Positions 18,520 to 60,139 of a stretch of 64,000 bases of DNA are shown here, piece after piece. How positions within the stretch are numbered: position 1 is the first letter of the stretch; every line of letters starts with the position of its first letter. Under the pieces are notes generated by a model. That model saw only the letters and a list, made by a program, of their open reading frames with translations, made no database searches and was not told the origin of the DNA. Origin of the DNA: Proteromonas lacertae (lineage: Eukaryota). The stretch is taken from positions 248,001 to 312,000 of the forward strand of contig NGBS01000292.1 of the NCBI GenBank assembly GCA_002245135.1. Direction: 5' to 3'. The position numbers and the translations under genes were made by a program.

Positions 18520-20460
18520 TTAATCAACTTCTTCAATATGTGGACCTTGAGCACTTCCACCACTTGGAGCAGCACCAGCTCCTGGCATTCCACCAGCTGG
18601 CATACCTCCTGCACCACCGCCTAACTTACTCATTATTGGCATTACTTTATTTTCTAATATCTTCAATTGTTCTTCATATTCTTCTTTCTCAGCATTTGGA
18701 TGACTGTCTAACCAACTAATTGCAGCTTCAGCAGCATCTTCTACAGCTTTCTTATCATTTTCACCTAATTTATTAGCTACAGCTTCTTCACGAACACTGT
18801 TCTTTACACTGAAAGCATAGTTTTCTAATTGATTCTTGGATTCTACACGTTCTTTATTTCTATCATCTTCAGCTTTGAATTTCTCAGCTTCAGCAACCAT
18901 TCTTTCAATTTCTTCAGGTGTAAGACGACCTTTATCATTTGTAATGGTAATCTTATTAGCTTTACCAGTACTCTTTTCTACAGCACTTACATTCAAAATA
19001 CCATTTGCATCAATATCATAAGTTACTTCAATTTGTGGAACACCTCTTGGCATTGGTGGAATTCCATCTAACTGGAACTTACCTAATAAGTTATTATCTC
19101 TTGTCATTGATCTTTCACCTTCAAATACTTGAATCAATACACCTGGTTGATTATCACTGTAAGTACTAAATACTTGAGTTTTCTTAACTGGAATTGTGGT
19201 ATTTCTCTTAATCAATACAGTCATTACACCACCAGCTGTTTCTAAACCTAAACTTAATGGAGTTACATCCAATAATAACAATTCATCTAATTTTCCACCT
19301 TTATCAGCACCAGTTAAAATAGCAGCTTGTACTGTTGCACCATAAGCTACAGCTTCATCTGGATTAATACTTTTACATGGTTCTTTACCATTGAAGAATT
19401 CTTTTAACATTTGTTGTACTTTTGGAATACGAGATGAACCACCAACTAATACAACTTCATCAATTTCACTTTTACCTAAACCAGCATCTCTTAAAGTCTT
19501 TTCAACTGGTTCCATTGTCTTACGGAAATAATCCATATTCATTTCTTCAAATCTAGCACGAGTGATTTTACTGTTGAAATCAATACCTTCATATAAACTA
19601 TCAATTTCAATCATTGCTTCAGTTGAACTGGATAAAGTTCTCTTTGCTCTTTCACAAGCTGTACGTAATCTTCTTAATGCACGTTGATTGGAAGTTAAAT
19701 CTTTGTTGTATTTTCTTTGGAATTCACGTGAGAAGAAATCAACTAATCTATTATCAAAATCTTCACCACCTAAATGAGTATCACCAGCTGTGGCTTTAAC
19801 TTCGAAAATACCATCTTCAATTGTTAATAAAGATACATCAAAAGTACCACCACCTAAATCGAAAATCAAAATGTTGTGTTCTTTTACATTCTTATCTAAA
19901 CCATAAGCAATAGCTGCAGCTGTTGGTTCGTTAATAATACGTAATACATTCAAACCAGCAATTGCACCAGCATCCTTTGTAGCTTGTCTTTGACTATCGT
20001 TAAAGTAAGCTGGAACTGTAATAACTGCATTCTTTACATCACTACCAATGTAAGCTTCAGCTGTTGTCTTCATCTTCGATAATACCATTGAGGAGATTTC
20101 TTCAGCTGAGAAGGTCTTGGTTTCACCACGATATTCTACTTGACATAATGGTTTTTGGTCTGGACCAGCAATCATCTTGAATGGCCAATGTTTCATATCA
20201 CTTTGGACTGATGGATCATTCACTTTACGACCAATTAAACGTTTAGCATCGAATACAGTGTTTGTTGGATTCATAGCACATTGATTCTTTGCAGCATCAC
20301 CAATTAAACGTTCAGTTTCAGTAAATGCAACATAAGAAGGAGTTGTACGTAAACCTTGATCATTAGCAATGATTTCTACACGATCATTTTGCCAAACACC
20401 AACACAAGAATAAGTTGTACCTAAATCGATACCAACTGCAGGGCCTGAGACTTTAGACAT
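18520..20460 (-). CDS. HSP70: cytosolic HSP70, intronless
   Basis: [32 protein letters not shown]-terminal EEVD. Confidence 0.98.
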
Positions 20461-21272: not shown

Positions 21273-23895
21273 TTAATCAGCAACATTAACATCAACATCT
21301 TCCGTATCAACTCTCTTACCTTCAGAGGATTGTAATCTTTTATTTTTATTTTTATTATCTTCTTCAGGATTAATCAATCCTAACTCAGTCAAATATTCAA
21401 TCTCAATTCTTCTATAATCACCATTCATTCTATCTAACTCCATATGTCGCTTCTGTTCTTCAGACATTTCATCCTTTTGCTTAGTCTCATGCTTAGTTTC
21501 ATCTTTCTGTTTAAATGCATTTACCTTTTCAATATGTTCAGTAATCTTGTCAATATAATGGACTCTTTGTGATTCTCTTTCAAAATGTGATTGTATTATT
21601 TGCACTTCATTATTTACTTGTCTTCTCATTGATATTGGGATACTTAAAATGTATAAATTACCGTTACTATCACCAACTGCTATTAATTGCCTTCCAGTAT
21701 CACTATTTAATCTAAATTCCATTGATGATATTTGACCTGATGTGATTGGATGCACTATTGAGGCTGAATTACTCTGATCTGTGAAATCCCATACTTCTAA
21801 GTAACCATCAGTCCTACCAATATACAATACACCTGGACGTGTTGGACTCCATCTACCAATAGTAAAATCAGCTTGAGATCTTGGTGAGATAAACACAGGA
21901 TCTTGTAACTCACCCATATATATGTGGAAACTCCATGAACTTACTGTCAAATATACATTTGATACGAATGGTGATCTTTCTAATGATTTGATTGGTCGAA
22001 GTTGATCTTGTGAATGCCATCTGACATAGGAAGGTACCTCTCCTTCTAATTGGTTTAAATCACCACTTGCAATAACACCCATCTCTGAAACACATCTAAA
22101 GATAGTACTCTCGGTTTCATTGGGATCTGAGAAAATGAACCTCGTCATAGCCAAAGCACCTACTTCAGAAGAACAATCTATTAAATAACTAAATCGTGGA
22201 ACCCATGGCACTTCTTCATCATCTTTATATCGATACAATCCTGATCTCTTTGCAATTTCTTTATAATTCAAATCCCATACATTAATTTGGCCATCAATTG
22301 AACAGGACATAAACTGAGTAATATCTGAAGTCTCTTTCTTGTTAATCTGTCCTCTTGTATTCACTTCCATTTGTGTTTTAATCCAATGTAATGCCGTCAC
22401 TGCTTTACTGTGGCTCTTATCTGATGAACTGTATACAATTGGATCTAAATATTGTGAGTGTAAAGGATCTTCTAAAGGATCTCTTGGTCCTTTTTGTTTT
22501 TCTCTTTCTTTTTCTGCCCAGTTTTGTGCTAAATTGTACATCATCACTTGACCACTTGCTCCTCCTACTATCACAGTGTCTGGATTCTCAGGATGTATTA
22601 TAAATGAGTTAATTTCAACAGGTGATTTAAGAATCATCATTGGATGAATTAGATCTTCGAAACTCCATACCAATATATATGAGTTAGTAGGGAAAACACT
22701 CTTATTTCTTTTTTCTTCAAAACTGAGTTTCTCATTCACACTACACATTACTACACCTTTTCTTCTAGGATGCCATCTTATGTGTGATATAATTCTACCT
22801 TTACTGTGATCTAGATCAGTAAATACTCTAAATTCAGAGATTTGGTTTTCGGCTTGGTTGCCTAATGACAAACCATCTTCAGCAAAACTGTCCAACTCAT
22901 TTTTAAATACATCCACTGTCTCATTACTTTGTAAAGCAGATCTAACTAAAGGAACAACTCTATCCAAGAACAACGATAGTTCTTTTGACTTCAATTGCTC
23001 TTCTATGAAATTCTGGTCAAATGATCTAGTTTCATACTGAACTGAACTATTAACCAATCTAGCCAACTGACTTTGACAAGCTTCATCTTTTTTCAATGAG
23101 AAATAACTTGGACCTATTTGTAAGCATGTTTCTCTTTCCATTCTATTCAAATTATTGGCGAAATCAGGATCAATGTGTTTTCTAAAGTCATCACAGGTTT
23201 CTGGATCAACATCATTGAAGGTATAAGGAGCACAGAATTCACTTCGTTTTCTAGCAATTGTATAACTCAATAAAGGCCTTTGTGACTTAATTGTAAGCCA
23301 TTTCACATTTTCTATGGTAGCTTCTTCTGTTTCGGATTTATATTCTCTTGTAGTTAATGGCATTACTTCGTATATTCTCTGTGCTTCGATTTCTGCAGCA
23401 ATTTTTCTTTGTCTTTCTTCTTCTTCTAATCTTAGTTTTTCTTGTCTTTCCGCTTCTTCTTTATCTTTGAATACTTTTAATTCTCTATTGAATGCATCTT
23501 CTGTAATTGCAGCATACCAGTTCTATTGAAAATAAATCAAAAATAAAATACAGCTCCATATTGTTCATCAGGATCAGCTACTAAAATAATATCATCAAGT
23601 GGATATTCCTTTAATTGATCTGCACATGGTTGAAATATACAATAAAAGCCTACTTGTTGGATTTCATCCAACACATCATCTCTATTAAATAATTTATATG
23701 GTACTACATCATGTAAACCTTCACCAGTCTTTAAATCTATCGATATAATTAAAAAGTAAAGTAAATACCAGCATCTTCCATCTGTTTGATAGTTAATAAT
23801 AAAGAAACACATCCCTCTGGTGGCTGAGGTTTATTGTCTTCCACTACTACCTTCTTCTTCTTCTTCTTCTTCTTTCCCTTAGCTTTCTTTGCCAT
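21273..23895 (-). CDS. WDR63: WD40 axonemal dynein intermediate chain WDR63/DNAI3 (IC140-like)
   Basis: ALQSNETVDVF, ILVWSFEDLIHP, SCSIDGQINVWD, RWSPTRPGVLYIGRTDGYLEVWD; ATG at 23895; two short 5' introns. Confidence 0.8.
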
Positions 23896-25660: not shown

Positions 25661-28600
25661 TTACACCAAATTTATTGTTTTAAGAAATGAAAAAGTCTCT
25701 AAAAATGATTCTATTTCTGTTTTTGTAATATCTTCTTTTACTGTTATTAATAATACATCCAACTTACTGAAAATTCCTTTGTTTTCTTTCATTAATCTCA
25801 ATTTACTTTCATCTAATTCATTTCCTGACAAATTTACTTCATATATTGTTCCACTATAATCTTTTAATCTTTCTATTAACATTTTTAATCCCTTTTCACT
25901 CATTCCAATATCTATTTAATAGTATTAAATTCTTATTATACTTGAAAGATTTAACGATGGATAATAATCAATAAAATAATCAATATTACTACATATTATC
26001 TCCATTCCTTCATCTCCAATATTATTGTTATTTATTGAAACATACTTTGCTTTGCTTGAAATACAATCCATCAATTCTCTTAATCCTTTTGAAGTAATTT
26101 TATTGTTAGATAAATCAATAGCCTTATAATAAATCTGATTAATCAATGAAATGTGAGAATCATTGATATTCAAATCTATGGTTATATGAAAATAAATTCT
26201 ATACTGGATAAATCATATTTTCTTTCATTAAAATATCTTCTTTTCTTTTTAATACAATAATCCAAATAATATTCCAACTCTTCATTCGTCCATGACGTAG
26301 ATTTAACTTTTATGAATGGATATTTATCACCAATTAATGATTTTAAACAAATCGATTTTAATCCATTCATAGTTATTGAATTTCCATTTAGATTTACTCT
26401 GTAAAGCACTTCTATTGAATCTGACATTTTTGTTAATAACTCTACACTTTCGTCATCTATCGACGTATTACTCAAATTCATTTCATATGGATAATATTCA
26501 TCCTTTAACATGTTTAGATTGTTTTGTAATAATTTAAATCCAGCATTACCAATTGGATTATCTATATAAATAAATGATTATAACAAATATATATTATACC
26601 GTGAATGACTATTCTTCTAATATTATCATTTTCTTTCACATAATTCATCAAATAATCTATTCCAGATGAATCTATATTATTATCACTTAAATCCAACATT
26701 TCAATCTTTTCTTCAACATTCTTTAAACCGTTTAACAAATGTCTCAATCCAATTGACGATAATCCCATATCTATTCATCATTACACAATAACAATTATAC
26801 TTGTACAGTTTATTTTATTATCATAATCTTCATAATCATTATATTCTAATAACAAACGGCAATATGGAAGTAATATTTTCATTCCTAAATCTCCAATTTT
26901 ATTTCCATTTAATTGAAGCTCTTTTAAACATTGAAATGAAGAGAGATTGTTAATCAGTATTTCTATACTTTTGTATGTAAGTTTATTATCTAGACAATAA
27001 AAAAGAATATCATATTATACTACTCAAATCTATTTTTTTTATCTCTCTTAATTCGTTTAATCTTAATGAAATGAATGATTTGAAAATATCATCATTAATT
27101 TCTAAATCATTCAGATATAAACTATTTATAGTTTTAATAAATTTGATTAACTCTGGAATGTCTTTATCAATCAGTAATTCTTTACTTCCTTTAAAATTAA
27201 AATCAACTTCTGTAATTGGAAATTTAGAGAATAATGATTTTAATCCTTTTGAACTGATATTTAAGTTTTCTGTAATATCTATTTTCTGAAGATTTGGATA
27301 CTTATATAACTCTTCTGCTAATAGTATCATCGATTCATCATTTAAGTTCATATCATAAAGATCTAATTCATTATTTTTGTTAATTAATAAATGCAAATAT
27401 GGAAGTAACAATTTGAATCCTTTAATACCAATTCGATTAGCTATTTCAAAATAATTCATATTCTATGATAAATATACTAGAAAGATTTATATATTCTAAT
27501 TTCATTACTGGAATTGATTTAATAAATGATTCAATGAAATCAAACGTAAGATAACACGAGTTTAAATACAATTGTTGTAAATTTGATAATTGACTAAAAA
27601 ACATTCCGAATAATGGTTGATGTTGGATTGGAATGTTACAATCATCTAATAGAATAGAAATTATCAGAATTATACTGAATTTAAGTTTTGTAAGATTCAT
27701 TAATTTCAATACTTTGAACAAGTAATTCATTCCATCTTCACATAAACATATGCATTTTGAATCAACTGTGAGGATTTCATTATAAACATAAATATGAAAT
27801 ATTAATTCATCTAATAAACATTCTTTTTCATTATTTTTACACTTATGTTCTATTCCATATTTCAGTTTGTCTATAATAACATAATCTTCTTTGTATATTT
27901 TCATCAACAATAATATCGACACTATTATTTCATTTGGTTTGTTAATGTAAAAATCTATCAAATCATCACGAATATTTTCTCTTTTTTCACTCTTAAGATA
28001 GTATTCTGCTTTTACATTAAATGATGATATTTCTATTAAATAATCATTATTAAATAACACATCTTTTCTTTCTTTACACAACATTAAATTATTCTCATTA
28101 TCTCTCCATATTTCACCCATTTTTATCATTTCTTTTTTCAGCTCTTTTAAACTCCATCTATCTTCAATTTTCACTTTCAACATTCTGAATATCATTTCTT
28201 TTATTATTTCATCACATTCTGCATCAATACTGTATTTACATCTCACAATATTCTCTTTTGTTTTATCCATATTATTATCTTCATTAAATGGTAATCTTCT
28301 TACTAATCATTTCATATAATATACATCCAATTGACCAAATTACACTTTTATCATCACATTCATATCCGTTCAACTCTTCTGGACTTTTGAAGCAGATATC
28401 ATATAATCTCATTTCATCTTCATTTCTCAAACTATCGATAAATAAATCACATAACTTTATATTATCACCATCTTCCTCATATATTATGTTACTACTCTTC
28501 AAATTACTAACAACTATATTATATTCACTTAATATCATCAATATATCACATAAACCACATAATACATCACATATATCACTTTTACACGATAATGAGTTAA

Positions 28601-28946
28601 TTTGAAGTAGCTCTTCTAAATCTCTCACATAATATTCTCTTTCTATCAACATATATTTATATACATCATCCATTGATATTTCACATCGTATAACACAACA
28701 AAAACGAAAATCACTTAAAGAACTACATAGATCTTCTATACATCTTAGCATTTTTCACTTACATTATCTACATCTATTATCTTTATCAATCTTTTACATT
28801 TTTTTTGTAATAAACTCACCTCACTTACACTCTCTTTCAATACTTCATATTCCTATATTGATATTATTATTATATTATCATACATTACTATCAATATCAT
28901 ATCTTCTTTTCAAATACTCAGTTACTCCCTCAATTTTGAAATACAT
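25661..28946 (-). CDS. N-terminal pseudokinase + RNI-like LRR protein (frameshifts near 28752 and 28298; possibly pseudogene)
   Basis: VVSNLKSSNII, IKLCDL, FKSPEE, VIWSIGCILYEM, then many LxLSxNxI repeats. Confidence 0.7.
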
Positions 28947-32488: not shown

Positions 32489-34485
32489 TTAATGTATTAA
32501 TTTAATACAAGTTTCAGTTTCAATATAATCTTTGATTTTTCTTTGCCAATTTCTATCATATCCACTGATTATCTTCATCAATTTCTTCAATCCATAAATT
32601 TTGATAAACTCACTCATCTTATTCAATCTTATTTTATCCATATTAGTAATAATAGAATCATATAACTCGTAAGAACCTTCAGATGGGAAACGCAATAACC
32701 AACAGAAAGAAAATACCAATTTCACTACTTCTACAAATATTGTATAATCTTCTTCACTGTTATAGTTACTTTCTATTTTTGAATAATCTTCATCTTCGTC
32801 ATCATTATACTCTTCAACATCTTCATCATCTTCATTGTTATTATTCTCTGCGTAATTATCACTTTTATGTATCAAATCATTTAACAATAAATCGAATAAA
32901 TAATCTGATGGAGAAAACAACCATATCGCAAAAGTGTAATAGATAATGTAATTACTTAAATGTGGAAGTATTAATCTTTAAAAATATAAATAAATTCAAA
33001 TTATATACTTTAATATAGTGAATTTCATATAATCATCCACACTTAAAAATGAAGGTAATGGTATAAAAATTGCACTCCATAATTCTAACTTTATAAAAAC
33101 AGTAAAATCTCTGATTGCTCTGTAATATTCACTATTGTATAATAAATAAATAAAATATACATATCATCTTCATATTGAAGTGGATTAATATACATAGAAA
33201 GAAAACTTGATAATTTAAAGATACTTTCTCCATTATTATATTTAAAAGTAATTTCTGGTAATTCATATTCTGGATTATCTCTTTTCTTATAATTCTATAG
33301 AAAACATATTTATAAAAAACAAATATGTATAATACAAATATTAATTCACTTAGTAATAAATACTTGGATATTAACATACTCACAACATTACCTTTGTTAT
33401 TATAATCATAATTTAAAGGTAAAAATATAACATGATCTCTAAACAAATATAACATATTATCACTATAAACAGGAGGATTAAATAATTCATTCAAATAATG
33501 ATGAGAAATCCTCTTTTTGTAACATAATTCTGTTGTAAAATATAATATTTCTAACTCATCCAAATATTTATTTATCTTATCAATGAAATTCTTTTTGAAA
33601 TATTTCCTAATAAATCTTTCTCCCCATGTTCCTTTCATATGTAAATAATATCTAATCACTTTCATATATTGATTCAATTCTAAGAAAGAAATAGAAAAAA
33701 AAAATAACAATACTTGGTTTTGTTCTATCATATCCTGTATTTTCTATGATTCTATTAAAAATATTCTTAGGTAAAGGATATTCTTTTCTTCTTATCAATA
33801 ATGCTAAGATATGAACTAAATCGTTTGGTATAGTGAAATGGGGTGATATTTCTCTGAATGAAATATACTGCAATTTTATGTATAACAGTTTTGTCTTTTT
33901 ATTAACATTGATAAACTTATTCAGCTTGATTACACCTTTTAATATTGGATATAATGCATAAGATAAATCATTTGTTATTATATAAGCGTCATTCTCTAAT
34001 GACAAATCTCTTAATAGACTAGAAAAGAGATAAAATGAGAGAAATATAATACTTCTTATTTCCTTCCATAATAACCTCATAATGAGACAATCCGAATGTA
34101 TTAACAAAGTTCATTTTGAAATAAGAGTCGTACATTGACATTGAACCTATTTAAGAGTTGATTTATAGAAAAAAAAAATGAATACAATGTCCTTGCGAAT
34201 TAATTTCTAGAGGAAAATCATTCATAAATGCATATAGATATGGAACAATTTTCAACTCTGTGAATTCTGTGAAAATGAACTGGATGTATTTCTTGTATAA
34301 TTCGAAATTGAAATTTGACTTCTGCACCAAAAATCCTAAAAATTCAGATCCGTTAATAATAACTCTATAAAAAGATACTATTAATCAACTTACCTTATTT
34401 CTTCATCATGTGGTAATGATCTGTACAAATCTAAGTGTTTTGATTTATCAACAACAAATTCTGATATTTCATCTACTTTACTCAT
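32489..34485 (-). CDS. multi-exon hypothetical protein
   Basis: ATG at 34485; consecutive ORFs joined by short GT-AG introns; no recognised motif. Confidence 0.55.
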
Positions 34486-34737: not shown

Positions 34738-36267
34738 ATGAGTAATCCGGCAGCGATTGGTATCGATCTGGGTACTACATTCTCGAGTGTAGGTACCTTT
34801 AAAGCCAATAAGATCGAAATTATCGCTTTCCCTTCAGGTGAGAGAGTATTGCCTTCCCACGTGTATTTTGATCCTAAAGGTAAAGAAATAATCGTTGGTG
34901 AAGCTGCAAAATTCTCAGTGAAGAGTGTTGGACACACTATTTATGATTCTAAGAGATTTATTGGAGCGAAGTTTACTGATAAGTGTGTTCAAGATGATAT
35001 TAAGCATTGGCCATTTAAAGTAGTTGATGACAATGGTTATCCCAAAGTAGAAATGGAATATGATAATCAAGTCAGACGTTATTCACCAGAAGATATATCA
35101 ACCATTATATTAAAAGAAATTAAAAAAACAGCTGATGTGTTCATGGGAAAACCGTTAGATACACCAACCAAAGCAGTAATTACAGTTCCAGCCTATTTCA
35201 ATAACTCTCAAAGAGAATGTACCAAAAGAGCAGCAGAAAGTGCCAATTTACAAGTAGTCTCCATAATCAACGAACCAACAGCAGCAGCTATCGCATATGC
35301 TCATCAAAGAATCCAATCAGGCAATCAAGGTAACAAGCCAAGAAGAATATTGATATATGACTATGGTGGTGGTACTTTTGATGTATCTATCATCGAATTA
35401 AACGAGAAAACAAGACAAGTGAAAGTATTATGCAGTGATGGAGATGCACACTTAGGTGGTGAAGATATAGATAATCTATTAGTCACTCATTATGTTAATG
35501 AGTATAGAAATGAATCAGGATCTACTAAACCAATCGCTTTACCAAGAATGATCGCATTGAGAAAAGTATGTGAAAAATCAAAGTGTTTATTAAGTTCAAC
35601 TCCTGAGGTATTTGTAGATAGTGAATTCTTAGATGATGCTGGTGTAGATTGTAATTTAACAAGAGCAGCATTTGATGATATAATGAATAGCTTATTCAAT
35701 AAAACAATAGAAATAGTGAGAGCTGTATTGACAAAGAACAATATAGCAGTTACTACAATCGATGATATTGTTTGTGTTGGTGGAAGTTCAAGAATACCAA
35801 AAGTTCAGGAATTACTAAAGCAAACCTTCCCTAAGACGAATATATGTCAAGATATCAATGCTAATGAGGTTGTAGCATATGGTGCAACTATTGCAGCTAA
35901 TATCAGTGGATTTGATTTCAAAATTGTTGATGTTGTGTCTCACAGTCTATCTACAGATGTTGAAGGTGATAAAGTATATGTTATGATTCCTAAAAATACA
36001 CCTTTACCTTGCTCACATACAGAGAAGTTTGGTAATGCCTATGAAAATCAAACTCATATTGATGTGAAGGTGTTTGAAGGAGAAGGTGCTACTACTACAA
36101 CTAACCAATTATTAGCTGATTTCTCCATTGATGATATTACACCAAGTCCACCTAGAAGTGTTATTGTTAGAGTTACATTTTCTGTTGATACCAATGGTAT
36201 ATTGACTGTTACTGGTGAAGAAGAGAAGAGTGGAAGAGTTAAGAAGTTAGTGGTCAACTTAAAGTAG
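34738..36267 (+). CDS. divergent Hsp70-family protein lacking the helical lid and EEVD
   Basis: [36 protein letters not shown]; ends right after SBD-beta. Confidence 0.9.
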
Positions 36268-37941: not shown

Positions 37942-39406
37942 ATGAGTAAAGAGCTTATTCTTCTTGAAGATGACATTAAAAAATCAACAAATTCTCAAGT
38001 ACATGCTTTCTTCTAACAATTCATAGGCTGCAATTAATTTAATGAAAACATGCTTGGGATCTGGTCTTTTAGCTTTGCCGATTTTGTTCCAAGAGGTATG
38101 CAATGAATATATATTTCCTTTGTAGTCTGGTATTGTTGAAAGTGTACTTATATCATCCATAATTGGTTTTTGGGTGTATAATTGTGCAACTAAATTAGTT
38201 AAAATACAATACTTACTTGTTGATCGATTTGATGATTATAAAACACATTCAATGTACTCAGAAATTTGTTATCAAGTATATCCACATTTTATTATTATAT
38301 TACAGGCATACGGTAAAGTAGGAGAGAAAATGTTTGACTTGATGACAAGTGTAACTTTAATTGGTATAGGTTTAGTTTACACTGTATAAATTAAAACAAT
38401 TAATTTAATCCAAATAGTTAACATCCAGTGAAATGTTATCTGCATTGCCATGGGATAAAATGCATTTAGATTTCATGACTAATCAGAATTATTGTATTAT
38501 TTTAGTGACATTACTACTAATTCCAGTCATATTGTTAAGAGATATGACTTCATTATCGTTTTCAAGCTTATTAGGAAATATTGCAATAATTAGCAGTATT
38601 GTTTTGGTGTTAATGTATAATTTTTTAAAATTAATATAATCATAAATAGATATGGATTAATCTATAATGATATGAATAACCTATTAGTTAATGTAAAATG
38701 GGTAGATAGTTCATTGAAAGGAATATCCAATTTATACGGGACATTGTTATATTCATTCGGAGTAATCTTCGTTGCACTACCAACAGTAGATGAGATGCAA
38801 ACTCCTGACGATTTCAGTAGAATATTATCCATTACCACCACATCTTCAGCTTTATTTTATGCAATATGTAACTCATTCCTCTATATATTGTTCCATAATG
38901 CTACTGGTGGCGTGAAAGGAAATATATTAGAGAATATGCATCCAGAATCTGTTTTTTATTATGTTGCTACAGTGTTAGTCTCATTGATGTGTGTATTTTC
39001 ATATCCTGTCACTGTTATGCCAGCTTTGCAATTATGTGAGCCAAAAAGTGATGAAAATGATCGTGGATTATTCACTCATAATTATAAGAAGATTCTATTT
39101 AGGATATCGATTGTTATTATTGCTTCAATAACTGCATTTTTCTTTCCTAGTTTTAATATCGTAGTTTCATTATATATCTTTTTGAAAACATTCTATTATT
39201 CAATATTATTTCTTTAATTTAATATTTTACTAGGTAATTTAACAATAACTCTTATTACATTTGTATTTCCTCCATTATTATATATTAAACTAAAAGGAGA
39301 AGATACTACAACCTCAGAGAAATATCATAATATAATTTTATCAATATTTGGACTTGCAAGTATGGTTTTTACAACAGTTACAGCAATAGTAACATTAAAA
39401 CATTAA
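37942..39406 (+). CDS. AAAP amino acid permease paralog 2
   Basis: NLMKTCLGSGLLALP; tandem with paralog 1; last exon joined through an AT-AC intron. Confidence 0.85.
39174..39230 (+). other. U12-type AT-AC intron
   Basis: ATATCTTT donor, TTCTTTAAT branch, TTTTAC end; splicing gives VVSLLGNLT, matching the paralogs' VSLIGNVT. Confidence 0.85.
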
Positions 39407-39443: not shown

Positions 39444-42400
39444 TTATCTACTAAATAATTCAATATTATGAGAAAGATTTTCTACTTTTATTTTATACAA
39501 CTCGTATAAATATGGTAAATACTCATATATTTCTGATATTTCATCATGATTCAATTTCAAACGTGTTAAATCTATTGAATGTTTCTCTTTTATTGAAGAT
39601 AAAAGTGTGTGATATGTTGTATGTAAATCAAAAACTGTCTTTTCTATCACTCTAAATCTTTGATTTGGATATTTCAAACAAATATTCAACAACAAATATT
39701 CATATCCTTTTTTACTATCACTATTATTATATTCTTCACAAATATCCTCCAATAAATCTATTCATATAATAGAAATATAATTAATACTATATCTTTTCAT
39801 AATTTCGTTATATTCTTCTTCACTTTCAAAATGATATTTACTATTGTTTATCATTTCCTTTACTTTTTCTATCCATTTATAATTTGGATCATATAATTCT
39901 ACATCTTCCATTAACTCTTCGTCTATATCTCCCATGTTATTACCTGACACAATAATCTCTTTAACATTTGGATATTTTTTAATGTAAGTTAAAAGCTCTC
40001 TTATCTCATTAGATGTGAATTTATTATCTATAAATAATAATAATTACAATTATAATAAACTTTTTAAAACCAAAGATTTTATCACTATTTTTGGATTGAA
40101 TAGCATACATAAATTTGATATACAATTATCTGTTAAGGAATTATCTATAATACAAAATAAATATATTGAAATATATATACTTGATAAACATAGCATTTCC
40201 AGATTATGGAATGTATTAAATCTACTAGATATTATCTTGATTGCTAAATCAGTTAAACCACATTCTATTACATTATAAAATAATAGAATTACTAATAAAA
40301 TCTATTCTTATAAAATTATTAATATTCTTTGAATTAAAAAGATACTCCACTCCTTTATCAGTAATACAATTTCCTAATTGAATTATTATAATTAAAATAT
40401 ACTATTGATATTCAACATATTAATGTATGGTAAATTATCTAATGATTTTGATAAATATTTACAGCTAATTGCAGTTAAATTATTATCACCAACATTTATA
40501 AACTGTAAGTTGGACATACAATACAAATTCAAACATATTATTTTCATTGATTCATCTGTTAAATTTGTTTTCTGTAATTCTAAATTTTTTAAATTATGAA
40601 AAGAATCTGGTAATATTTTAAATCCTTTGAAATTTAATTTATTATCTATTTATTATTATGCTATATATATAATACAATTAAGATTGAATTCATTTAATCT
40701 CTTTGAATAAATTATATCACATAAATATTCTACTCCATCATCTGAAATATCATTTATACCTACATATAATCCCTCTAATCTTGACAGTATTGGAAAATAT
40801 TTAGACAAACCTCTTACTCCTTCATTTGTTATTCTATTGCCATTTACACCGAATGATTTAAGATTTGGTAGATGAGGTAATAAGTTACATAAATTATTTA
40901 AACCTTTGTCATTCAGATTATTGTCTATGAAGAATCGTATTTAATAAAATAACATATATACATCCAACGCCAAGTACTGTTATTGATAATGATTTAGGAA
41001 TAGATAATATCTCATTCAAATGTTCTACATCATCATTTCCTATCTCATTATCTATTAAACTAAAGATGAAAAGATATACAATTCATAAATATATTTCTGA
41101 GATTTAGTAAACTCATTAATTTTTTCATTAACATGCAAAATGAATAAGAATTTAATTGGCATCCACACAAACTAATTTCCTTTAGATTTTGACAAATTAA
41201 TATTGCATTAGAAAAACATTCTATACCAATTTCTGTAAAACTATTATTTGACATATCCAATTTTATTAACTTGTTTAAATAATGTAGGTTAAGCGATATA
41301 TACTTTAAACCACAATCATCTATATTTATTTCATATAAACTAAGTTCTGCTAAATTTGTCAATATGCTGAATCTATTACTTATTTCTTTTATTCCTTCAT
41401 TGCCTATATTGTTTTTATCAAGACATAACTGCTGTAAATACTTTAAATACGATAATTGTGAAGCAAGTTCTATAGCTCCTACAGTATTGAATCTATTATC
41501 TAAAAAAATAAAATATATTTATATTAATATACTCATTAATGATAAAATTTCTAAATAAACAACATTTCTTAGATTCTTACTTAACTCAATAACTCCAGAA
41601 TCATCAATATAATTATCTATTCAAATGAATATATTATAATATATACTATCCAATATAAGTTCTATTAAATACATACAACTATTCATTTGTCTAATTAATA
41701 AAGGAATAATGGATGATGATAAATTATCATCTCTAAAACATATTGTACGTAGTTGATATGCTTCAGACAATCCATCTAATATCAAATTCACTTTTTCATC
41801 ATTCAATCCACAATCTAAAAATAGACTATAAATATACATTGAAAATTAATTGTGATTATTCTTTTCAGATTTTTAATATAATAGCTTATGAAACAGCAGT
41901 CTTCAATAGTCAATCTCTTACCTATGTCAATAAAATAAAAATTTCTATACCTTTTGCTTCTATGTTTAGTGTATTTCCTATGCATTTACAATACTTCAGT
42001 CTTGAGTAATCATTTTCACAATCAATCATTTTCATCACTTTACTACCAATTCCATAATTCATTGCTATAATACATAAAAAGTTGAAAATTATTTCATCCC
42101 TTGTTCTATTGAAAGTATTTGCCACATCTTCCAATAAACCTATTTCAAATATTATCATGAAAAACAAGTATACCACAACTATCAACAACATATAACATTA
42201 CTCTTTCATTTGAATAACAGTCTTCTGTCTTTAATAAATTATATACTTCACTTTTACTAATAACTATTTAAATGAAATGATAATAATATCAATATATACA
42301 TTCTGAATCTACTTCTTTTATTTTATCCAAAAGATTAGGAATCTTTGATGAATCGATTGGATTTCTACTAATTTCCAGTTTAATTTTGTATGGTAATTGC

Positions 42401-45400
42401 TGAATACTCTCCAACAACACTTCACACCCCTTTTCTGTCATTCTGTTGCCTAATTGATATATAAATAAATAAAATACCTTTCAAATCTATCGATTCTAAT
42501 AATGGTAGAAGATGAAGTGAATGAGCAAATGATATTATTCCACTATCATCTATATAATTATTACATAATGTGATTCTTTTCAATTCAGACAAATAACTCA
42601 TGTTTTGTAGAAAGTATTTAAATCCAGCAATACTTATATCATTCTCTATTTTTAGAAAATATATAAAAGATTTACTGTTAATGTTAAATTCTTCAAGATT
42701 TTGCTAGTACGCTAAAATTTTTGCATAATACAGTAAATATATCATCTGTTATTTCACAGTCTAAATAATATCAGAAGAAATAAATACTATTAATTATTAG
42801 ATTCTTCAATGATCTTAAAAGTCTAATTGATTCGATCAATTCTTTAAACAATGATAGACAATTATGAATATCATCGAAAGCTAATGTTGTCAAATTTGTG
42901 ACATAACGTAAATTGTCTCTTATCGCTTTCAACCCTAATATTCCGCACCCACAATCTATATAAAATATAAACTCAAATAATAAGCAAACTTTGAAAACTG
43001 ATTTGCTCTAGTTTTCTAATGTATTTGAAAGAATTGGCAATTGATATCACTCCTTCATCTCCAATTGTTATTAAAAAAAAAATAAAAGTTTTCAAATTTG
43101 ATAAATATGGTAAAGCTTTTGAAAATTCCAATATTCCTTTTGAAGTAATAGAGTTTCCTATAAAAAATGCATTTGATTGAATAATATACTATAAATTCCT
43201 ATTATTTCAAGTTTTGTGAATCTTGTTAAAGCTTTGCTCAGCTTAATTAATACATTGTCACTTAGTTTGTTCTGAGAAATATTTAACCAATAATAATTTA
43301 GGACAATATTGTAAAGCATCACATAATATTTCTATATCATTATCATCAAGATTCTGATCTATGAAAATGGTAATGAAGAAAAATACTTTCAAGATTAATT
43401 CCATAATTATTCTGTATTCCTGAAAATATTTTATTCTGACTTCCTTTTAGTTTTGTTATATTCATTATTGATAGTTTATAAGCAGGGTATAGTGAGAGTG
43501 CAAAACCAAACAATATTCCAAAGAAATAATTCCTTGGATTATTCATTACACGATATGTATGGTTTGTCATAATATCTACAATTGATTAAAAAAGAATTTC
43601 TATACTAATATTCTTACTTAGTTGTTTATATATATAATGATTATCTATAATGTACTGACTTGTCTTCAACATTTCAAAAGCATCATTACTAATATTTTTG
43701 AATGAAAATTTCAATGGAATTGATTTGTTTTCATAATTATATAATAATAGTTTCACACTTTCATGGTTTAAAGATATTCCACATAAACTCAGTTTTTCTA
43801 ACTTTGGCATTTTGTACATGTATCTATGAATATATTTAACTGATTTATCACTCAATTTATTATCTAAAATATGTATTAAAAAAACTACATTATACAAGAT
43901 AAATACAACTTTGATAGTTCATTAAATGAGTTAGAATAACACAAAAATATAATAATATCATTGTCTTTAAGATGAGTGAAAGAGATTTTGAGAGATTTTA
44001 AATATGGCATATGTGACAAACCTATTGCAAATTCTTTCATTTTCTTATGTAAATTTATACTTTCTAAATAAATATAATAATTAATTAAATATACTGGACA
44101 TATTCAATTGTTCTAAACACGGAAACATTGATTCAGTTGGAATAAATCTTTTCAATTCTATGTTATACATGTTTAGTATTTTCAACTTTTGAATATAACT
44201 ATAATCTATATCTGATAGATGTTGTGTATCATCAACACTCATATTGGATAGATTTAGTTGAAATGGCTTTTCAGAATGCAGATAAAACTTCACTTTAAAA
44301 CTATTATCTTTCTTTATCAATAAATCTATTAATTCCTTATTATCTTTATTTAACCAACTAATATTTAACAAATAGTAAAGATATTTAATTTATTGTAAGA
44401 ATTAAAGTAGTGAATCATTTCCATTAAGTTTTCTAAACAGAATTACAATGCATATATACTTTTGTTTGTTATTGTTTTGTCAAATATAATTGAATCTTTT
44501 ATTAAATAATTATTTGAAATTAAATTGATAACAGAATGGAACATCGATTGCAAATATATCAATTATATCATTTTCTTCTATCATCTCTTTCATCTTCTTC
44601 TTTAAATGATTATAAATCTCTTCTATTGTTGGTCTTTTGTTTGGATCATTATTACAACATTTTCCATATAATTTGTGGTAATTCGAAGTGTTTCCATTGT
44701 AATTTATATGCAATATAGGTGATTTTGAGAATAAAATATAATGTAATAATACTCCTAGACTGAATATATCACTTTTATTACAGATTTCTTTGTTTTGTAT
44801 AACTTCTGGTGATGTATAAAATAAATCTTCTAGATCACATGATTCTATAGGATTCATTTCATATTCACAGGGATTACTTACTATATAATTACCATCATCT
44901 GTTATTAAGATATTTGAAGGTTTGATTCTTCCATGAATTAAACCAATTTTGTGTAATAATCTTAATTGATTTACTATTTGATTAAACATCTTATTTATGG
45001 TATTTTCATCAAAACTATCTACTCCTTCAATTGATCCATTTTTATAATAAGGTAATACTATTATCGATATAATCTTCGTACATTGCAACTATTGCAAAAA
45101 AATAGGAGTTTCTAGAGAGGATATTAACATAATTGAATTTATCTATAAAAATAATAAAATATATTATACATATGAAAGTTGAATTGGAATTGATTGTTCT
45201 TCTAAATCATATATTTTATATACTAGCCTGGTTAAAATTCTTTTCTTCCACAATATAAGTATATGAGTATTTGGTTGATTTTAGCTTAGATTTTAACTAT
45301 TTGTACATTTATATGAAATATACTTTAAAACCAAAAATTTCACAAAGTTCCATATCCGCATCTGACTATATATATACATATAACATATCAATACCTCAAC

Positions 45401-46793: not shown

Positions 46794-47903
46794 ATGAGTG
46801 ATTCAGACCAAAGTATAACCAAACAGGCAAGTTTCAAAGCGTGTGACTCTGAAGCTTTAGATGAAGCTCAAAAGAAAAGGATGAACAACTACATTGAGTA
46901 TTAAAGGATATTTATTACTGTTATTAATAGCACATTGGTTAGATCTACTGATTTATACAAACCTGACATGCCAAATTCCATTATGGCTGATTTGACTCAA
47001 TTAATCAACAACTCTAAACTCTTGTTCTACATTGTTTTATGCAATATGTCAAGAAACCAAAATAATGAAAAGCCTTAATAGATGTATAGTTTGTATTTAT
47101 AACTGTTTAGATATTACTATTAAAAAATGCCCCATTCGAGTATTATGACTCAGCATTGCATTTGCTTTTGATAATGATGAATGAACCAGATACTCATAAA
47201 TTCTATTTAGCACAACGAAACTGTTTCAATGTCTTGTTAAATTTTTTACCTTATAATTCAACCACTTTTACTCAAGATCAGATTGTACATTTAGCAGTAG
47301 AAGCTTCTAATCTATTAAACTTATTATTAGCTGAAAATAGGAGAATGGCAAGACAAAATTATTTCAATGCCCCAAGTTTACCAGAACGGCTGTATAAATT
47401 CTTGCAATGGTCAATATCATTATATCCAACACAATACACTGAAAATACAGTACTTACATACGATATCAAAAGTAATTCACCAACATCGTCCTCATCTTCT
47501 TCATCATCCTCTACTCAACATTTATATAATACATATGACTTATGTAAAACCAGTTTAGAATTAATCAAAGAATCAGCTGCAGAAAGAGTAAGATATCAAG
47601 GTATAATATATAAATATAATACACATAAATAGATATTTTATGTAATAAAGACTACAATATATTATTATTACTATTAAAGCAATGTCTATACCCTATTCTC
47701 TCTACACACCCTCTAGAAGATATCCAATCATCTTCATTCATATCATCTCCTTATGTTATATATCTATTAGACTGCTTAAGGTCATTGATAGTCTTTAATA
47801 ATAAAGTCATTAACCATATAATAAGTAATGATAATAATAATAATATTTTATTATCGTTATATTGTGAATTATTGAAATTATATGTTTTATTCAATTATAA
47901 TTC

Positions 47904-47940
<37 letters not shown>

Positions 47941-50681
47941 TAGCAATGAAAATGAATCACTTTCTGTTAAGCCAATATATTATAGTTTATTACATTATAT
48001 GTCATTATTACCATATGATAATTCAACAATTGAAAGAATATTGTTAGAATATCAAGAGAAATATAATGTTTCATTCACTAATACATTAATAAAGCAATAT
48101 TTCCCAAGTGTTACTGATAATATTATATATTTACAATTAGAGTTATATTTTCATGTATATATAATATATATATATATTGTTATTATTATTAAATATAGAT
48201 ATTTGAATCAATATCTAAAGATCTGTATAAAATTAAAATTCATCATTATGAAGAAGACACTGTAGTACAAGCACTTACTGTATAATATATATTTATTATT
48301 ATATATTTAGTCTATTTATAATATAATGTCTAATGAATATGATGCATTCTATTTCTTCTATATCTCCTACAGTGGTACAAGACTGCTAATACAGTGTCTT
48401 AATGTATTAGATGAAACGGTAATATTAAAAGCTTGTCAATTAACCTATTTATATTTATACAATTATACTGATGGAATTGTTCCTTTTATAGAAAGAGGTG
48501 GTTTATATGCATTAAAGGAATGTATAAATGATTATGATCCTCAAATCAGAATCGAGTCTTTAAAAGCTTTATCTGTGTTTTATAACATTGAGAATGAGAT
48601 TGATATTAAGAAATATGGAATATTGAAGGAATTATGTGAAATTATTGATTCTTATCCAAGTGAAGATATATCTTTTTATTATTATTATATCATTATATTT
48701 TATAATTATTTTTCTTTAATTTTTATTTGTTTTACTGTCCATTAGAGATATTTGATACAACTGTTCAAATCCTAATAATTGCAGTAAAGACTAATGTTTT
48801 TAATCAAGTATATATAAATATATATATTATATTTAATAGGATGAATTATCATGTAATGGAAGATTAGATAAACTATGTCATATCTTAAAAACAGAATTAG
48901 AAAATATAATAAACCATCAACCATCAATATCCTTATATATATATATATATATATAAATTGTTATATTTCCTTTATTATTTTTTACTCATTACCTTTATCA
49001 CCTGAAGAAGTATTAGATGTAATAACACATATATTATTATGTATAACCAATACAATATATCACAACACCAGAAACCAAAATATCATTTACAGTACTGGAA
49101 TAATTGAATATTGTTGGAATATTAAGAATAAAATAAGTGATACTTTTTGTGATAATATATTGACATTATTAATCAATTGTATTGATACAAATAAGACTGT
49201 TCAAAATGCTTTTGGTGGTGAGGAAATAAAGAATGATATATTATATATTTTGGATGAAAAAAATAGAAAAAGTAAAAGAGCTTTAGGTTATATAATGATT
49301 TCACATTTATGATATCTTTTTATTATTATTATAATGTTATTATTATAATTATTATTTTCTTTAATTTAAAAGTTGTAATTGGAATAGTGAAAAAATCCAA
49401 CAACTTTATACTTGTGAAGAAATATTAAAGTATTTCAAAATTGACATTAATTACTGTAACTATGATCCTGAATCTCCAATCTCTATCTATAACCCAACAC
49501 TCTCTGCATTATATGCGTTTATTAATCTTTCTCTAAATAATAATAAATTAAAACAATCGATTAAGAATTATCCATCTATCAGTAGAACTTTGATTGACTT
49601 TTTGACTGTTGATAGTTATGATATTCGAAAGAATACAATATTTTGTTTAAGTAATTTGATAGATGATAATGAGGATCTAGCAGATCAGTATATATATATA
49701 TATATATATAATATTATTTATTTATTAGATTGTATAATTTATCAATAATTCCAAAGTTAATTTATAATATCAATGACAATAATGATGATCCACTATCTAC
49801 AAAGGCATATCAAGTATTAGAAAGAATGAGCAAACAGACTATTATCTATATAATCAGTTCATTATATTATATGAATAAAAATGAAATTAATAATAATTTC
49901 AGTAGTAATTTAGTCAATCAAATTGAGAATGAATTTAAAGATAAAATATTGAAGTTGAATGATGATGATAAAGCTAATAAACCACATGTTGAGACTAATA
50001 AAGAGTTTATATTGTCTTATGTTAGTATTTTGAATGGATTATTATATACCAATTCTACTTCTAGAAAGTTCTTTTTATCAAAATTTATATCCTTTTTTTA
50101 GAAATTTCTGAGAAATTTCTTTAATTTTTTTTGTAAGGAATTGCACCGTTATTATATTTAATAATGAAAACTGATAATGAATTAAGAGATATTATTTGTT
50201 TAATATTAACTAATTCATCCCTTGATAGAAGTACATCTCTTCAAAACGAAAGTGTAAAAGAAGGCTTACTAACAGTATTTGAAGAGTTATTTGTCATTTT
50301 ATCGAAGAAGAGTGAAAGTGATAAAAATATGAAAGAAGAACATTATATCTATCCTTTTGATGTTTTAACGAATTATACATTAAATAATAGTTCCGTGTCA
50401 TATACTATTATGAATTGGAAAAATGATTTTTATATGAAATTGTTAAAGTATTGTCATAGTAGTAATAAAGAATATTCAGTAATATGTGTAGAGTTGTTAA
50501 TTTCGATTTTGGAACAAGTATTTTAATATTTATTTATTTATTTATTTAGTCTAAAGCTGGTGCTATAGCATCTGGAATTTCAGGAACAAAAACATGTTTG
50601 AATGAAATTGTAAAATATGATTATCTGAGCGATGCTTTAAGAGCAAGAGCAAAACAGTGTATTAGGGACTTAAAACTGTAG
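46794..50681 (+). CDS. armadillo/HEAT-repeat protein with four U12-type introns
   Basis: FIERGGLYALKECI, NQNIIYSTGII, GIAPLLYLI, IRKNTIFCLSNL ARM-like segments; an in-frame model needs both GT-AG and AT-AN introns. Confidence 0.7.
47905..47935. repeat. (TA)n microsatellite extending an intron donor GTATATA
   Basis: Same pattern at 108-139, 8873-8890, 25125-25151 and 49689-49710. Confidence 0.8.
48668..48735 (+). other. U12-type AT-AC intron
   Basis: ATATCTTT...TTCTTTAAT...TTTAC, phase 0, restores frame. Confidence 0.85.
48927..48985 (+). other. U12-type AT-AC intron
   Basis: ATATCCTT...TTCCTTTAT...TTTAC, phase 0, restores frame. Confidence 0.85.
49312..49378 (+). other. U12-type intron, AT-AA (alternative AT-AG end at 49372)
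   Basis: ATATCTTT donor removes the TGA; TTCTTTAAT branch; both candidate ends are in frame. Confidence 0.75.
50087..50136 (+). other. U12-type intron, AT-AA
   Basis: ATATCCTT donor in phase 0, TTCTTTAAT branch; the AA end gives in-frame SKF|GIAPLLYLIMK whereas the adjacent AG is out of frame. Confidence 0.8.
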
Positions 50682-50852: not shown

Positions 50853-52431
50853 ATGAGTACTGTAGATTCAAAACTTTCAGATACTCAATCTTCAAGTGAG
50901 TTAGTATTTTTACTTATTACTACTGTTTTTAGCATGCTGAAGATTTAGTTTTACTACAGGAAGAAATAGATGCACAGCAAAAGAATGCAAAAGTAGCACC
51001 ATAATATCCTTTTTATTTAGTGTATTTATGAAAGATAGCCTTAATAAATATACTTATTTAAATTATCCAATGGTTTATGTATTTTTATACATGTTCATGG
51101 TATTTACAAATCACATTATGATACATCAATATAACACAAGTGAATGTAGAGGTCCTAGAGCATATTTAGTGGGCCAGATAGTACTAGGCTATCTAATAAT
51201 GTTTTTATATGCATGGACTTTTATTGGTCCTGTTCCATTCTCTTCATTTACATATTATTTAGCATTGTGGGCAGTTCATAGTGTGTTATCAGTGTTTTGG
51301 TTTATAATGGGAATAGTATGGGAAGTAAAACAGAAAACATGTGTATAAATTATTAATAATTATAAATTTCATATAGAGAGACGATGCTCCTGGTGTATTT
51401 TGGTTGTGTTTTGTTGAATTACTAATTTTTGCTTTAGAAGTCGTACTTTTAATCTTATCCTACATATTCAGTTCAATTGATGACTGTTTAGAAAGAGTGA
51501 AAGAAGAAGATGCAATAATTAAAGACTTTGAAGAACAATTCGAAGATGATAAACGTCTAATTGAGGAAAAAGAAGAAGAAAAAGAGAAACAAGCCATCAA
51601 ACCAGTATTTCAATTTGATGTTATTGAGAATAAACAACCTGTTGCTGGAAGAAATGCAAAAGCATCAGCAAAAACAATTAAATCAGTTAATGGTAGTGTT
51701 ACTCGTAGTAGAGCTGTACAATCAATTCCAACGAAGAGATCAGTGGGTGATGAAAGAAAAACGCAATCAGTTACAAAAAGATCATCCAGTGGAGAACATA
51801 AAAGTTCAAGTGGAAAAAGTGGTGGAAAAGGCGGAAAATCTAGTAGTGAAGAAGAGAAGAAAGGATCTAGTACAACGTCTTCAGATAAAGGTGAGAAAGT
51901 ATTTGGTGAAGCTAAGAAATGTATATATATATATATAATCATTTTATTATATTGATTTAAATATAGCATCAAGTGATTCTAAAAGTGGTTCAAAAAGTGA
52001 ATCAAAGACAGATTCAAAGAGTGAATCTAAAAGCACTTCATCTGATGAAAGAAAGAGTATTTACATTCATATTTTTATTTATTATTTTAATAGAAGATTC
52101 ATCAAGTGATTCACATAGCGATTCTCATAATAGAAAGAGTTCTTCTTCAGAGAATAAGTCGGGTGAAAGAAAAAGTGAGTCATCTACTACATCTAGTTCA
52201 AGTAAAGGAGGTGCAAATCATTCTACAAGTGGTAGTGGAAGTGGAAGTGGAAATGCTGAAGGAACAAAAGCAAAGAGTCATTCAAGTGAAAGTGAAGGTG
52301 AAAGAAAGAGTGGATCATCAAGTAGTGGTAAAGAAGATAGAAAGAGTGAATCATCTGGTAGTAGAAGTGGAGAAGAGAAGAATGATGACGATCCACCACC
52401 ACCACCACCACCTCCAGAAGAAGAAGAATAA
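50853..52431 (+). CDS. 4-TM membrane protein with Ser/Lys/Glu-rich low-complexity tail and poly-Pro end
   Basis: Hydrophobic segments 51060-51470, then S/K/E-rich exons; the exons join in frame. Confidence 0.65.
51004..51053 (+). other. U12-type AT-AC intron
   Basis: ATATCCTT...GCCTTAAT...ATAC; removes the TAA and gives VAPYYLNYPM. Confidence 0.85.
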
Positions 52432-57594: not shown

Positions 57595-59142
57595 ATGGAA
57601 TCAAGAGATCCTGTGATTGGAATTGACCTTGGAACAACTAATAGTTGTGTTGGTATTTATAAAAACCATCGTGTTGAGATTGTACCTACTCAGACTGGAC
57701 AAAATGTCTTGCCTTCTCGAGTTTGGATTAATAAAGAAGGTGAAAAAATCATTGGAAGTACAGCATGTTCTAAACAGCATAAAGTTATTTATAATTCAAA
57801 AAGATTTATAGGTAAGAACTACAGTAAGATATCTGAAAAAGATAAAGAATGTTGTTCTTTTAGAATTGAGAAAAGTGAAGCTGGTGATATTCCGTTAATG
57901 GTAGTAGAATATGGTGAAAAAGATGAAAAAGAAAAAAAATATAAAAAATATACACCAACACAAATATCATCCTTTATATTGAAAGAATTAAAAAAATTAG
58001 CTGATTTAAAGCTTAATAAAAATAAAAATAATATAACTCCCACAAATGCAGTGATAACTGTTCCAGCATATTTCAATGAAAAACAAAGAGAAGAAACAAA
58101 AAAAGCAGCTGAATTAGCCAATTTAAAAGTAATTCAATTAATAAATGAACCAACAGCAGCTGCATTTGCATATTGTGATCATTTAAATAATCTGAATGAT
58201 AAATCTTATACGCACATCTTAGTTTATGATTTTGGAGGTGGTACATTTGATGTATCTTTAGTTAAAGTAGATCATGAAAATAAAAAAATAATTGTCTTAA
58301 AAACAGATGGTGATAATCATTTAGGAGGTGAAGATATTGATCAAAAGTTCGTAGATAATTATGCTTGTTATTATAATGTAAAAGGAGTTGAAGATACTCC
58401 AAAAGAAATAAAACTAAAAATGAAACCAATATGTGAAGCTGCTAAGAAGTATTTAACTACTGATACACAAACTAATTTTAAGTTTGATATGTTTGGATTT
58501 GATGATGATGGGTATGACATATCAAGAGAAAGTTTTATATCAATGATAGAAGAGATATTAAATAAAACATTTGAAATAGTTGAAAATATGGTGAATAGTA
58601 TGAATGGATTTAATAAGAATGATATAAATTATATTGTATTAGTTGGTGGAAGTTCAAAAATTCCATATATTGAAGATAAATTAAAAGAAATGTTTCCTGC
58701 TAGTGTAATAAAGAAAGACATTAACACTGAAGAAGTTGTTGCAATTGGTGCTACACTTTATGCAAGTGGTAGTGTATTAAATGGTTATGAATGTGTTGAT
58801 ATTATTTCACACAGTTTATCGACTGATGTAGCTGGTGGAAAATCACAAATACTATTTCCAAAGAATAGTGTAATTCCATCAACCAAAATACTAACTTATA
58901 TAAATACAGATGATTCTGGTTTTAGTCATATTGGTATTTATGAAGGTGAAAATAAAGATTATTCTGATAATAAATACTTAGGTGGATGTAATATTCCAAT
59001 AACATCTGCTAAACCAGGAATGGTTAAATTCACTGTAATTTATAAAATAAACAAGAGTGGAGTGATTGAAATAACTGCGAAAGAAGAAAATCCAAATCCT
59101 CATGAAATATTAGAAAAGATTGAATTGAATGAATCTGTGTAA
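57595..59142 (+). CDS. second divergent lid-less Hsp70-family protein
   Basis: [37 protein letters not shown]; 515 aa, no EEVD. Confidence 0.9.
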   Translation: MESRDPVIGIDLGTTNSCVGIYKNHRVEIVPTQTGQNVLPSRVWINKEGEKIIGSTACSKQHKVIYNSKRFIGKNYSKISEKDKECCSFRIEKSEAGDIPLMVVEYGEKDEKEKKYKKYTPTQISSFILKELKKLADLKLNKNKNNITPTNAVITVPAYFNEKQREETKKAAELANLKVIQLINEPTAAAFAYCDHLNNLNDKSYTHILVYDFGGGTFDVSLVKVDHENKKIIVLKTDGDNHLGGEDIDQKFVDNYACYYNVKGVEDTPKEIKLKMKPICEAAKKYLTTDTQTNFKFDMFGFDDDGYDISRESFISMIEEILNKTFEIVENMVNSMNGFNKNDINYIVLVGGSSKIPYIEDKLKEMFPASVIKKDINTEEVVAIGATLYASGSVLNGYECVDIISHSLSTDVAGGKSQILFPKNSVIPSTKILTYINTDDSGFSHIGIYEGENKDYSDNKYLGGCNIPITSAKPGMVKFTVIYKINKSGVIEITAKEENPNPHEILEKIELNESV

Positions 59143-60066: not shown

Positions 60067-60139
60067 TGCCCGGGCCGCGATTCGGACGCGGGTTATTTCG
60101 GCCACAACGAAATGTACTAACCAACTATACTACCCGGGC
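60067..60139 (-). tRNA. tRNA-His(GTG)
   Basis: Acceptor stem GCCCGGG/CCCGGGC, anticodon arm TTTCG-TTGTGGC-CGAAA, T arm CCGCG-TCCGAAT-CGCGG. Confidence 0.93.

Follow-up and report, generated by a model that had tools for sequence, protein, structure and literature searches.

In Blastocystis ST1, 346 U12-type introns were reported in 319 genes among 35,412 introns in all (Gentekaki et al. 2017, PMC5608401). According to the available text of a later survey, 49% of the ST1 minor introns are in phase 0, unlike in most species, and recent minor-intron gain was suggested for this subtype (Larue and Roy 2023, PMC10639083). For B. hominis, the accessible part of another study gives 0.29% minor and 2.6% minor-like introns (PMC11347168). 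We counted by hand the rows starting with ATATC in the intron table of PMC5608401 (supplementary file 32), of which 330 of 339, all from the ST1 sheet, were covered. In these rows, the ends were AT-AC in 197 introns, AT-AG in 109, AT-AA in 17, AT-AT in six and AT-CG in one, and AT-start introns occurred once in 281 genes, twice in 17, three times in five and four times in none. The surplus of 27 in our count is the same as in the published one (346 − 319) and leaves little room for a four-intron gene, with nine rows and any GT-start minor introns lying outside our count. The five three-intron genes contain 12, 15, 17, 23 and 41 introns in total; if introns were placed at random, with geometric numbers per gene, 0.8 such genes would be expected versus the five counted in this part of the table, so that ST1 minor introns cluster too.

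Within-gene clustering of U12-type introns was also found in all 21 genomes tested in the survey part available to us (PMC7367187). In human and mouse, 50 genes that carry two U12-type introns and 3 that carry three are listed (Olthof et al. 2019, PMC6717393), in agreement with the premise of an initial annotation of the present DNA that most minor-intron genes have only one. The accessible preprint text on Physarum polycephalum describes more than 20,000 minor introns with the branch point TTTGA, for which a transposon origin was proposed; recent gain of minor introns was shown there, and they are spliced efficiently (bioRxiv 10.1101/2020.10.12.336362). Given these intron numbers, Physarum would have to surpass four minor introns per gene. 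We found no description of four minor introns in one gene in the portions of the literature available to us, and subscription papers and survey supplements may already report such genes. Among the matches listed, Opalinata-related papers contained no mention of U12 or the minor spliceosome in their text, and no mention of U12 was found in the accessible parts of a paper on Proteromonas introns.

The initial annotation had placed four U12-type introns, interleaved with ordinary GT-AG introns, within 1.5 kb of a single ARM-repeat gene, and a fifth in the next gene. We analysed the whole stretch of 64,000 nucleotides (hereafter, the window), and the gene was modelled as follows.

46794..50681, + strand: ARM-repeat gene; stop at 50681, open frame from 47111/47174, 11 introns
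46898-46930 and 47084-47110, + strand: two likely GT-AG introns around a frame break at the 5′ end (by eye)
47601-47632, 47904-47943, 48155-48198 and 48280-48310, + strand: four GT-AG introns in the 5′ half (gene finder)
48668..48735, + strand: predicted U12-type intron, AT-AC, 68 nt, phase 0, branch A at 48719 (motifs, open frame)
48808-48839, + strand: GT-AG intron, 32 nt, phase 0 (open frame)
48927..48985, + strand: predicted U12-type intron, AT-AC, 59 nt, phase 0, branch A at 48974 (motifs, open frame)
49312..49378, + strand: predicted U12-type intron, phase 2, branch A at 49364 (motifs, open frame)
49688-49728, + strand: GT-AG intron, 41 nt, phase 2 (open frame)
50087..50136, + strand: predicted U12-type intron, AT-AA, 50 nt, phase 0, branch A at 50124 (motifs, open frame)
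50518-50549, + strand: GT-AG intron, 32 nt, phase 0 (open frame)

At the DNA level, the four AT starts lie exactly where they had been annotated, at 48668, 48927, 49312 and 50087, and three GT-AG introns were indeed found between and after them. All four introns begin with ATATC(C/T)TT, which matches the U12-type 5′ splice site RTATC(C/T)TT, and each contains TCTTTAAT or TCCTTTAT as a branch-point motif; these motifs are AT-shifted, near-canonical variants. The minor (U11/U12) spliceosome is predicted to excise all four introns; in keeping with established U12-type splicing, the U11 snRNA would base-pair with ATATC(C/T)TT and the U12 snRNA with the branch-point motif. We looked for the 3′ ends by enumerating nearby boundaries that hold the frame open from the consensus start. 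The frame was restored on removal of all four introns, and the frame-keeping ends agree with the predicted AT-AC, AT-AC, AT-AG/AT-AA and AT-AA of the initial annotation. The third intron has two in-frame ends, AG at 49372 (61 nt) and AA at 49378 (67 nt), and an AG one base past 50136 is out of frame in the present assembly. From branch A to the last base, the distances are 16, 11, 8 (or 14) and 12 nt, in order; the reported optimum for U12-type introns is 11-13 nt (PMC3584512, available text). According to the same source, U12-type introns are recognized by their start motif and their branch-point motif; they lack a pyrimidine tract, and distance determines the 3′ end. If the 3′ ends here are likewise selected by distance from the branch point and not by a pyrimidine tract, this would explain why AC, AG and AA ends all occur. 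The exact 3′ ends of the third and fourth introns are provisional, and the AT-AA call at 50136 is uncertain because frame breaks suggest assembly indels.

The pair of start and branch-point motifs occurs four times in the 1.5-kb region, and more than two pairs were reached in 0/3000 order-2 and 0/3000 order-3 Markov simulations. The whole window contains seven pairs versus a mean of 0.57 in 60 simulations. Because the pattern was tuned on these introns, the chance test is generous. Six of the seven pairs are modelled introns; the pair at 39789 is a false match. Bare RTATCCTT was not enriched in the window (11 matches vs 7.9 expected; 19 of 100 shuffles reached 11).

The predicted minor introns are set apart from their surroundings by sequence and composition. 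Window GT-AG introns have a median length of 32 nt and a strong consensus (GTAT start in 99/104 models, TAG end in 102/104), which makes the four AT-start introns unlike the major introns. On the + strand from 47111 to 50681, exon-like stretches of 22-34% GC are interrupted by short stretches of 5-16% GC, and the GC contents of the AT-start introns were 7-16% as compared with 22-26% for the flanking exons. With 11 introns removed, four of them AT-start, a simple gene finder that had been trained on window sequence gave 1005 aa from the Met at 47174; its motif rules were written from these same introns and its agreement with the hand model is not independent. Two more 5′ exons, from the ATG at 46794, connect only if a frame break of one base near 47070 is bridged; the intron total is thus 11-13, being 13 if the break is an error.

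The single open frame of 1005 residues, together with its matches to ARM proteins, bears out the annotation of one ARM-repeat gene. Armadillo repeats are tandem three-helix units of ~42 residues. The exon at 48326-48667 matched designed armadillo proteins (best E 5e-9), the look-alikes of the exon after the third AT-start intron (49374-49685) were ARM clusters with a score of 0.96, and look-alike clusters of the exon after the fourth included ARM-like ones. Repeat anchors, chosen by eye, are spaced 39-60 residues across the first three AT-intron junctions. Although all Pfam Arm matches in the gene were sub-threshold, we assign the predicted protein to the ARM-repeat proteins. Judged from motifs, composition and frame continuity, both the U12-type identity of the introns and the single gene are well supported.

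Could some of the calls be wrong, with the major spliceosome splicing elsewhere, several genes sharing the region, or assembly indels lying behind the odd ends? One-base frame breaks without an intron explanation are present near 14840 (−), 16630, 17170, 17240, 28290 (−), 47070 and 53897, that is, about seven (by eye) per 47,295 modelled coding bases, one of them in the ARM gene and several at base runs. They are probably assembly indels, and the AT-AA at 50136 could be an AT-AG that has lost one G, but such an indel alters the end dinucleotide only and the minor-type identity stands. In-frame GT-AG alternatives exist for the first (48660-48745) and the fourth (50025-50137) introns. The former has a non-consensus donor, however, and the latter is 113 nt long, ends in AAG (1/104 in the window) and would lose 21 exon-like codons. 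Each GT/GC-AG alternative to the second or third AT-start intron loses at least 72 further bases. The introns of 50-68 nt are too short for gene boundaries, the ARM pattern resumes in the next exons, and no start codon was found near the head of the downstream exons, except for one at residue 9. We consider it improbable that some of the calls are wrong in these ways.

AT-start introns were also found elsewhere in the window, and the fifth minor intron of the initial annotation was found in the next gene.

51004..51053, + strand: in the next gene (50853-52431), predicted U12-type intron, AT-AC, 50 nt, phase 2 (motifs, gene finder)
39174-39230, + strand: AT-AC minor intron in one of four amino-acid-transporter-like paralogues
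13771-13700, − strand: likely AT-AA minor intron, 72 nt, phase 1, with a weak branch point, in a CLC chloride-channel gene (reading of translation)

For the chloride-channel intron, the gene finder placed an AT-AG end; we took instead the AT-AA end at 13700, which gives the most CLC-like reading as judged from family sequences. The gene finder's GT-AA call at 40345 (−) is coding sequence, GTATC(C/T)TT at 34378 and 54500 lies inside GT-AG introns in both cases, and no GT-start minor intron was accepted in the 64-kb window. The window further contains three Hsp70-like genes, of which, by translation, one is conventional and two are divergent, shorter and intronless (18520-20460 on the − strand, 34738-36267 and 57595-59142 on the + strand). 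At 25661-28754 (−) and 39444-45088 (−), kinase-like domains are followed by leucine-rich-repeat-like genes, which at both loci have short, regularly spaced introns, nearly all in phase 1. Transporter-like paralogues lie at 36.4-37.8, 37.9-39.4, 52.7-54.0 and 54.2-55.7 kb and are 41-53% identical. In an Rfam scan of the window, a tRNA gene at 60067-60139 (−) was the sole match at the gathering threshold.

Outside the ARM gene, 3/101 modelled introns are AT-start (39174, 51004 and 13771 on the − strand), a density of 3.0% with a 95% interval of 0.6-8.4%, which is not clearly different from that of ST1 (p 0.08). With random placement, a density of 3% gives 0.3-1.3 genes with at least four minor introns per 10,000 genes. 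A single four-intron gene in a genome is thus about what chance would produce at a density of ~3%. The most probable explanation, in our judgement, is that the cluster represents the far tail of a Blastocystis-type situation, in which a lineage rich in short AT-start minor introns shows the ordinary tendency to cluster. Minor introns would gather in intron-rich genes, and a raised genome-wide density combined with the usual clustering would yield about one such gene per genome, in which case a gene-specific mechanism would be unneeded. The density on which this account relies was estimated from three introns. The ST1 density of 1% stands against it, giving with random placement only 0.00-0.04 four-intron genes per genome and 0.00-0.02 in a genome of 10,000 genes, as does the enrichment of the ARM gene over its neighbours (4/13 vs 3/101 AT-start, Fisher p 0.003), although this test is post hoc and uncorrected and the gene was picked as extreme. 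The initial annotation had left only a choice between local de novo creation of minor introns and a gene rate-limited by minor splicing. Its U12-type identity and single gene stand, but the choice missed this simplest account, since minor introns cluster in all 21 surveyed genomes and in the five ST1 genes with three, as far as the available parts of those sources go.

The comparison with ST1 also favours a lineage-level origin. AT starts dominate in both, with mixed AC, AG and AA ends and a richness in phase 0 (3/4 here), and in both the minor introns are short, slightly above the ~30-nt major introns, with several per gene (up to 3/12 in ST1). Given the phase 0 of three of the four introns and the AT start of all, features that recall ST1, we consider it more likely that they would be lineage-level gains rather than remnants from the eukaryotic ancestor. 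On the other hand, the present gene has four minor introns (4/13) versus the ST1 maximum of three, the minor introns here are longer (median 59 nt, n=7, vs 39 nt), the motif variants are AT-rich, and AT-AA ends are possibly commoner (1-3/7 vs 17/330); according to the available text of PMC10639083, no other non-canonical minor end is as common as AT-AA in animals and plants. The ST1 gene OAO18147 has the same minor-minor-major-minor order as the ARM gene, which may be chance. The human and mouse genes with three U12-type introns, which encode SLC sodium/hydrogen exchangers, resemble the ARM gene in having multiple minor introns at a level above random placement (PMC1557818, PMC6717393, accessible parts). 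Unlike here, where all are AT-start in a gene without a detectable distant orthologue, those introns are mostly GT-AG, at most three per gene, ancient and conserved. Physarum, likewise a protist, shares an elevated density of minor introns and the use of non-canonical ends, but its branch point is changed, whereas those here are near-canonical, and the density here is far lower.

An alternative is local creation, namely that at least one of the four introns was copied recently from an existing minor intron, for example within the 48668/49312 pair. The interiors of these two introns align with a score of 44, which was reached by 1/630 pairs of long GT-AG interiors and by no more than 0.1% of Markov simulations. 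What the two interiors share, however, is a low-complexity run of the TAT type, and 1/36 GT-AG interiors matches that of 49312 better (score 47); the other five AT-intron pairs within the gene score only 8-19. The first two AT-start introns are both in phase 0 and, by eye, in the same loop of neighbouring repeats, but their positions lie about four residues apart in the repeat, in different codons. Of the four transporter paralogues, a single one has the AT-AC intron at 39174; their GT-AG introns vary too, and loss explains this pattern almost as well. Recent gain was proposed for Blastocystis and shown for Physarum, as cited above. These observations provide two weak hints that de novo creation may have occurred here, and we regard local creation as rather unlikely.

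Relatives of the ARM protein indicate that intron positions in this gene do change. In protein searches, relatives with 58-89% identity were found that cover the 5′ half only; the 5′ exon search gave one cluster with six members, and three close relatives, but no others, were found when the full library was searched with a stretch of 227 residues. The 3′ exons had no relative in the protein searches, no candidate at near lengths was seen for the exon after the third AT-start intron, and two metagenome scans yielded no confirmed relative (0/142 and 0/87 pattern matches). The GT-AG intron 47601-47632 is missing in relatives P0001-P0007 at 83-89% protein identity; P0001 has no insertion at this position and has low-complexity insertions at the next two intron positions. 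This difference reflects either a recent intron gain or loss in the ARM gene or a partly spliced source.

We also considered that selection retains the four minor introns because their slow splicing holds down or controls the gene's output. A rate-limiting model has been published (PMC3584512, available text), and retention of any single one of seven introns (the four AT-start and three GT-AG introns, 48668-50549) causes a premature stop, so that retention of each AT-start intron would truncate the protein; retained GT-AG introns truncate it as well, however. In addition, further minor introns may have no effect if a single one already sets the pace (Sheth et al. 2006, PMC1557818, in part), minor introns are efficiently spliced in minor-rich Physarum according to the preprint text, and the accessible part of a pan-eukaryotic survey favours neutral processes. 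Such selection seems highly improbable to us.

The genes in the window give some indication of the host. A WDR63/DNAI3/IC140-like axonemal dynein intermediate chain is encoded at 21273-23895 (−) (E 2e-73), which suggests a flagellated host. In Blastocystis, nearly all flagellar genes are reported as lost in the available text of PMC12129017. The window thus lacks this trait of the genus and differs from Blastocystis in encoding a flagellar dynein chain, judged from one gene and with "nearly all" permitting exceptions; the host is probably a protist other than Blastocystis. The best named matches of the USP14 gene are stramenopiles with ~30-48% identity (among 120 listed of 707), and no Blastocystis protein was found among the best 120 of 707 matches. 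In a quick USP14 tree from 46 of 121 rows, which contained neither an Opalinata row nor an outgroup, the window gene and two relatives formed a long, unplaced branch. The kinship of the host to Blastocystis is thus putative, which weighs against the far-tail account. The host is likely a divergent, flagellated stramenopile with Blastocystis-like introns, and we infer that it may belong to Opalinata (Blastocystis and gut-dwelling relatives).

With four minor introns in one gene, the locus exceeds by only one the maximum of three found for human, mouse and Blastocystis ST1. It also serves as a warning that gene callers restricted to GT-AG introns will split such genes. A bolder reading, which we hold to be doubtful, is that active gain of minor introns is under way in this flagellated lineage, whose genome would have them at several percent, unusually often with AT-AA ends, and that the gene was caught in the act of copying between 48668 and 49312. 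If true, this would follow Physarum as the second instance in which the creation of minor introns is documented, and the Blastocystis-type expansion would predate the loss of flagella. If the host is a flagellated relative of Blastocystis, it would be the outgroup that Larue and Roy called for (PMC10639083, in the text available), and such an outgroup would decide whether Blastocystis gained its odd minor introns, with their AT starts and abundance of phase 0, recently.
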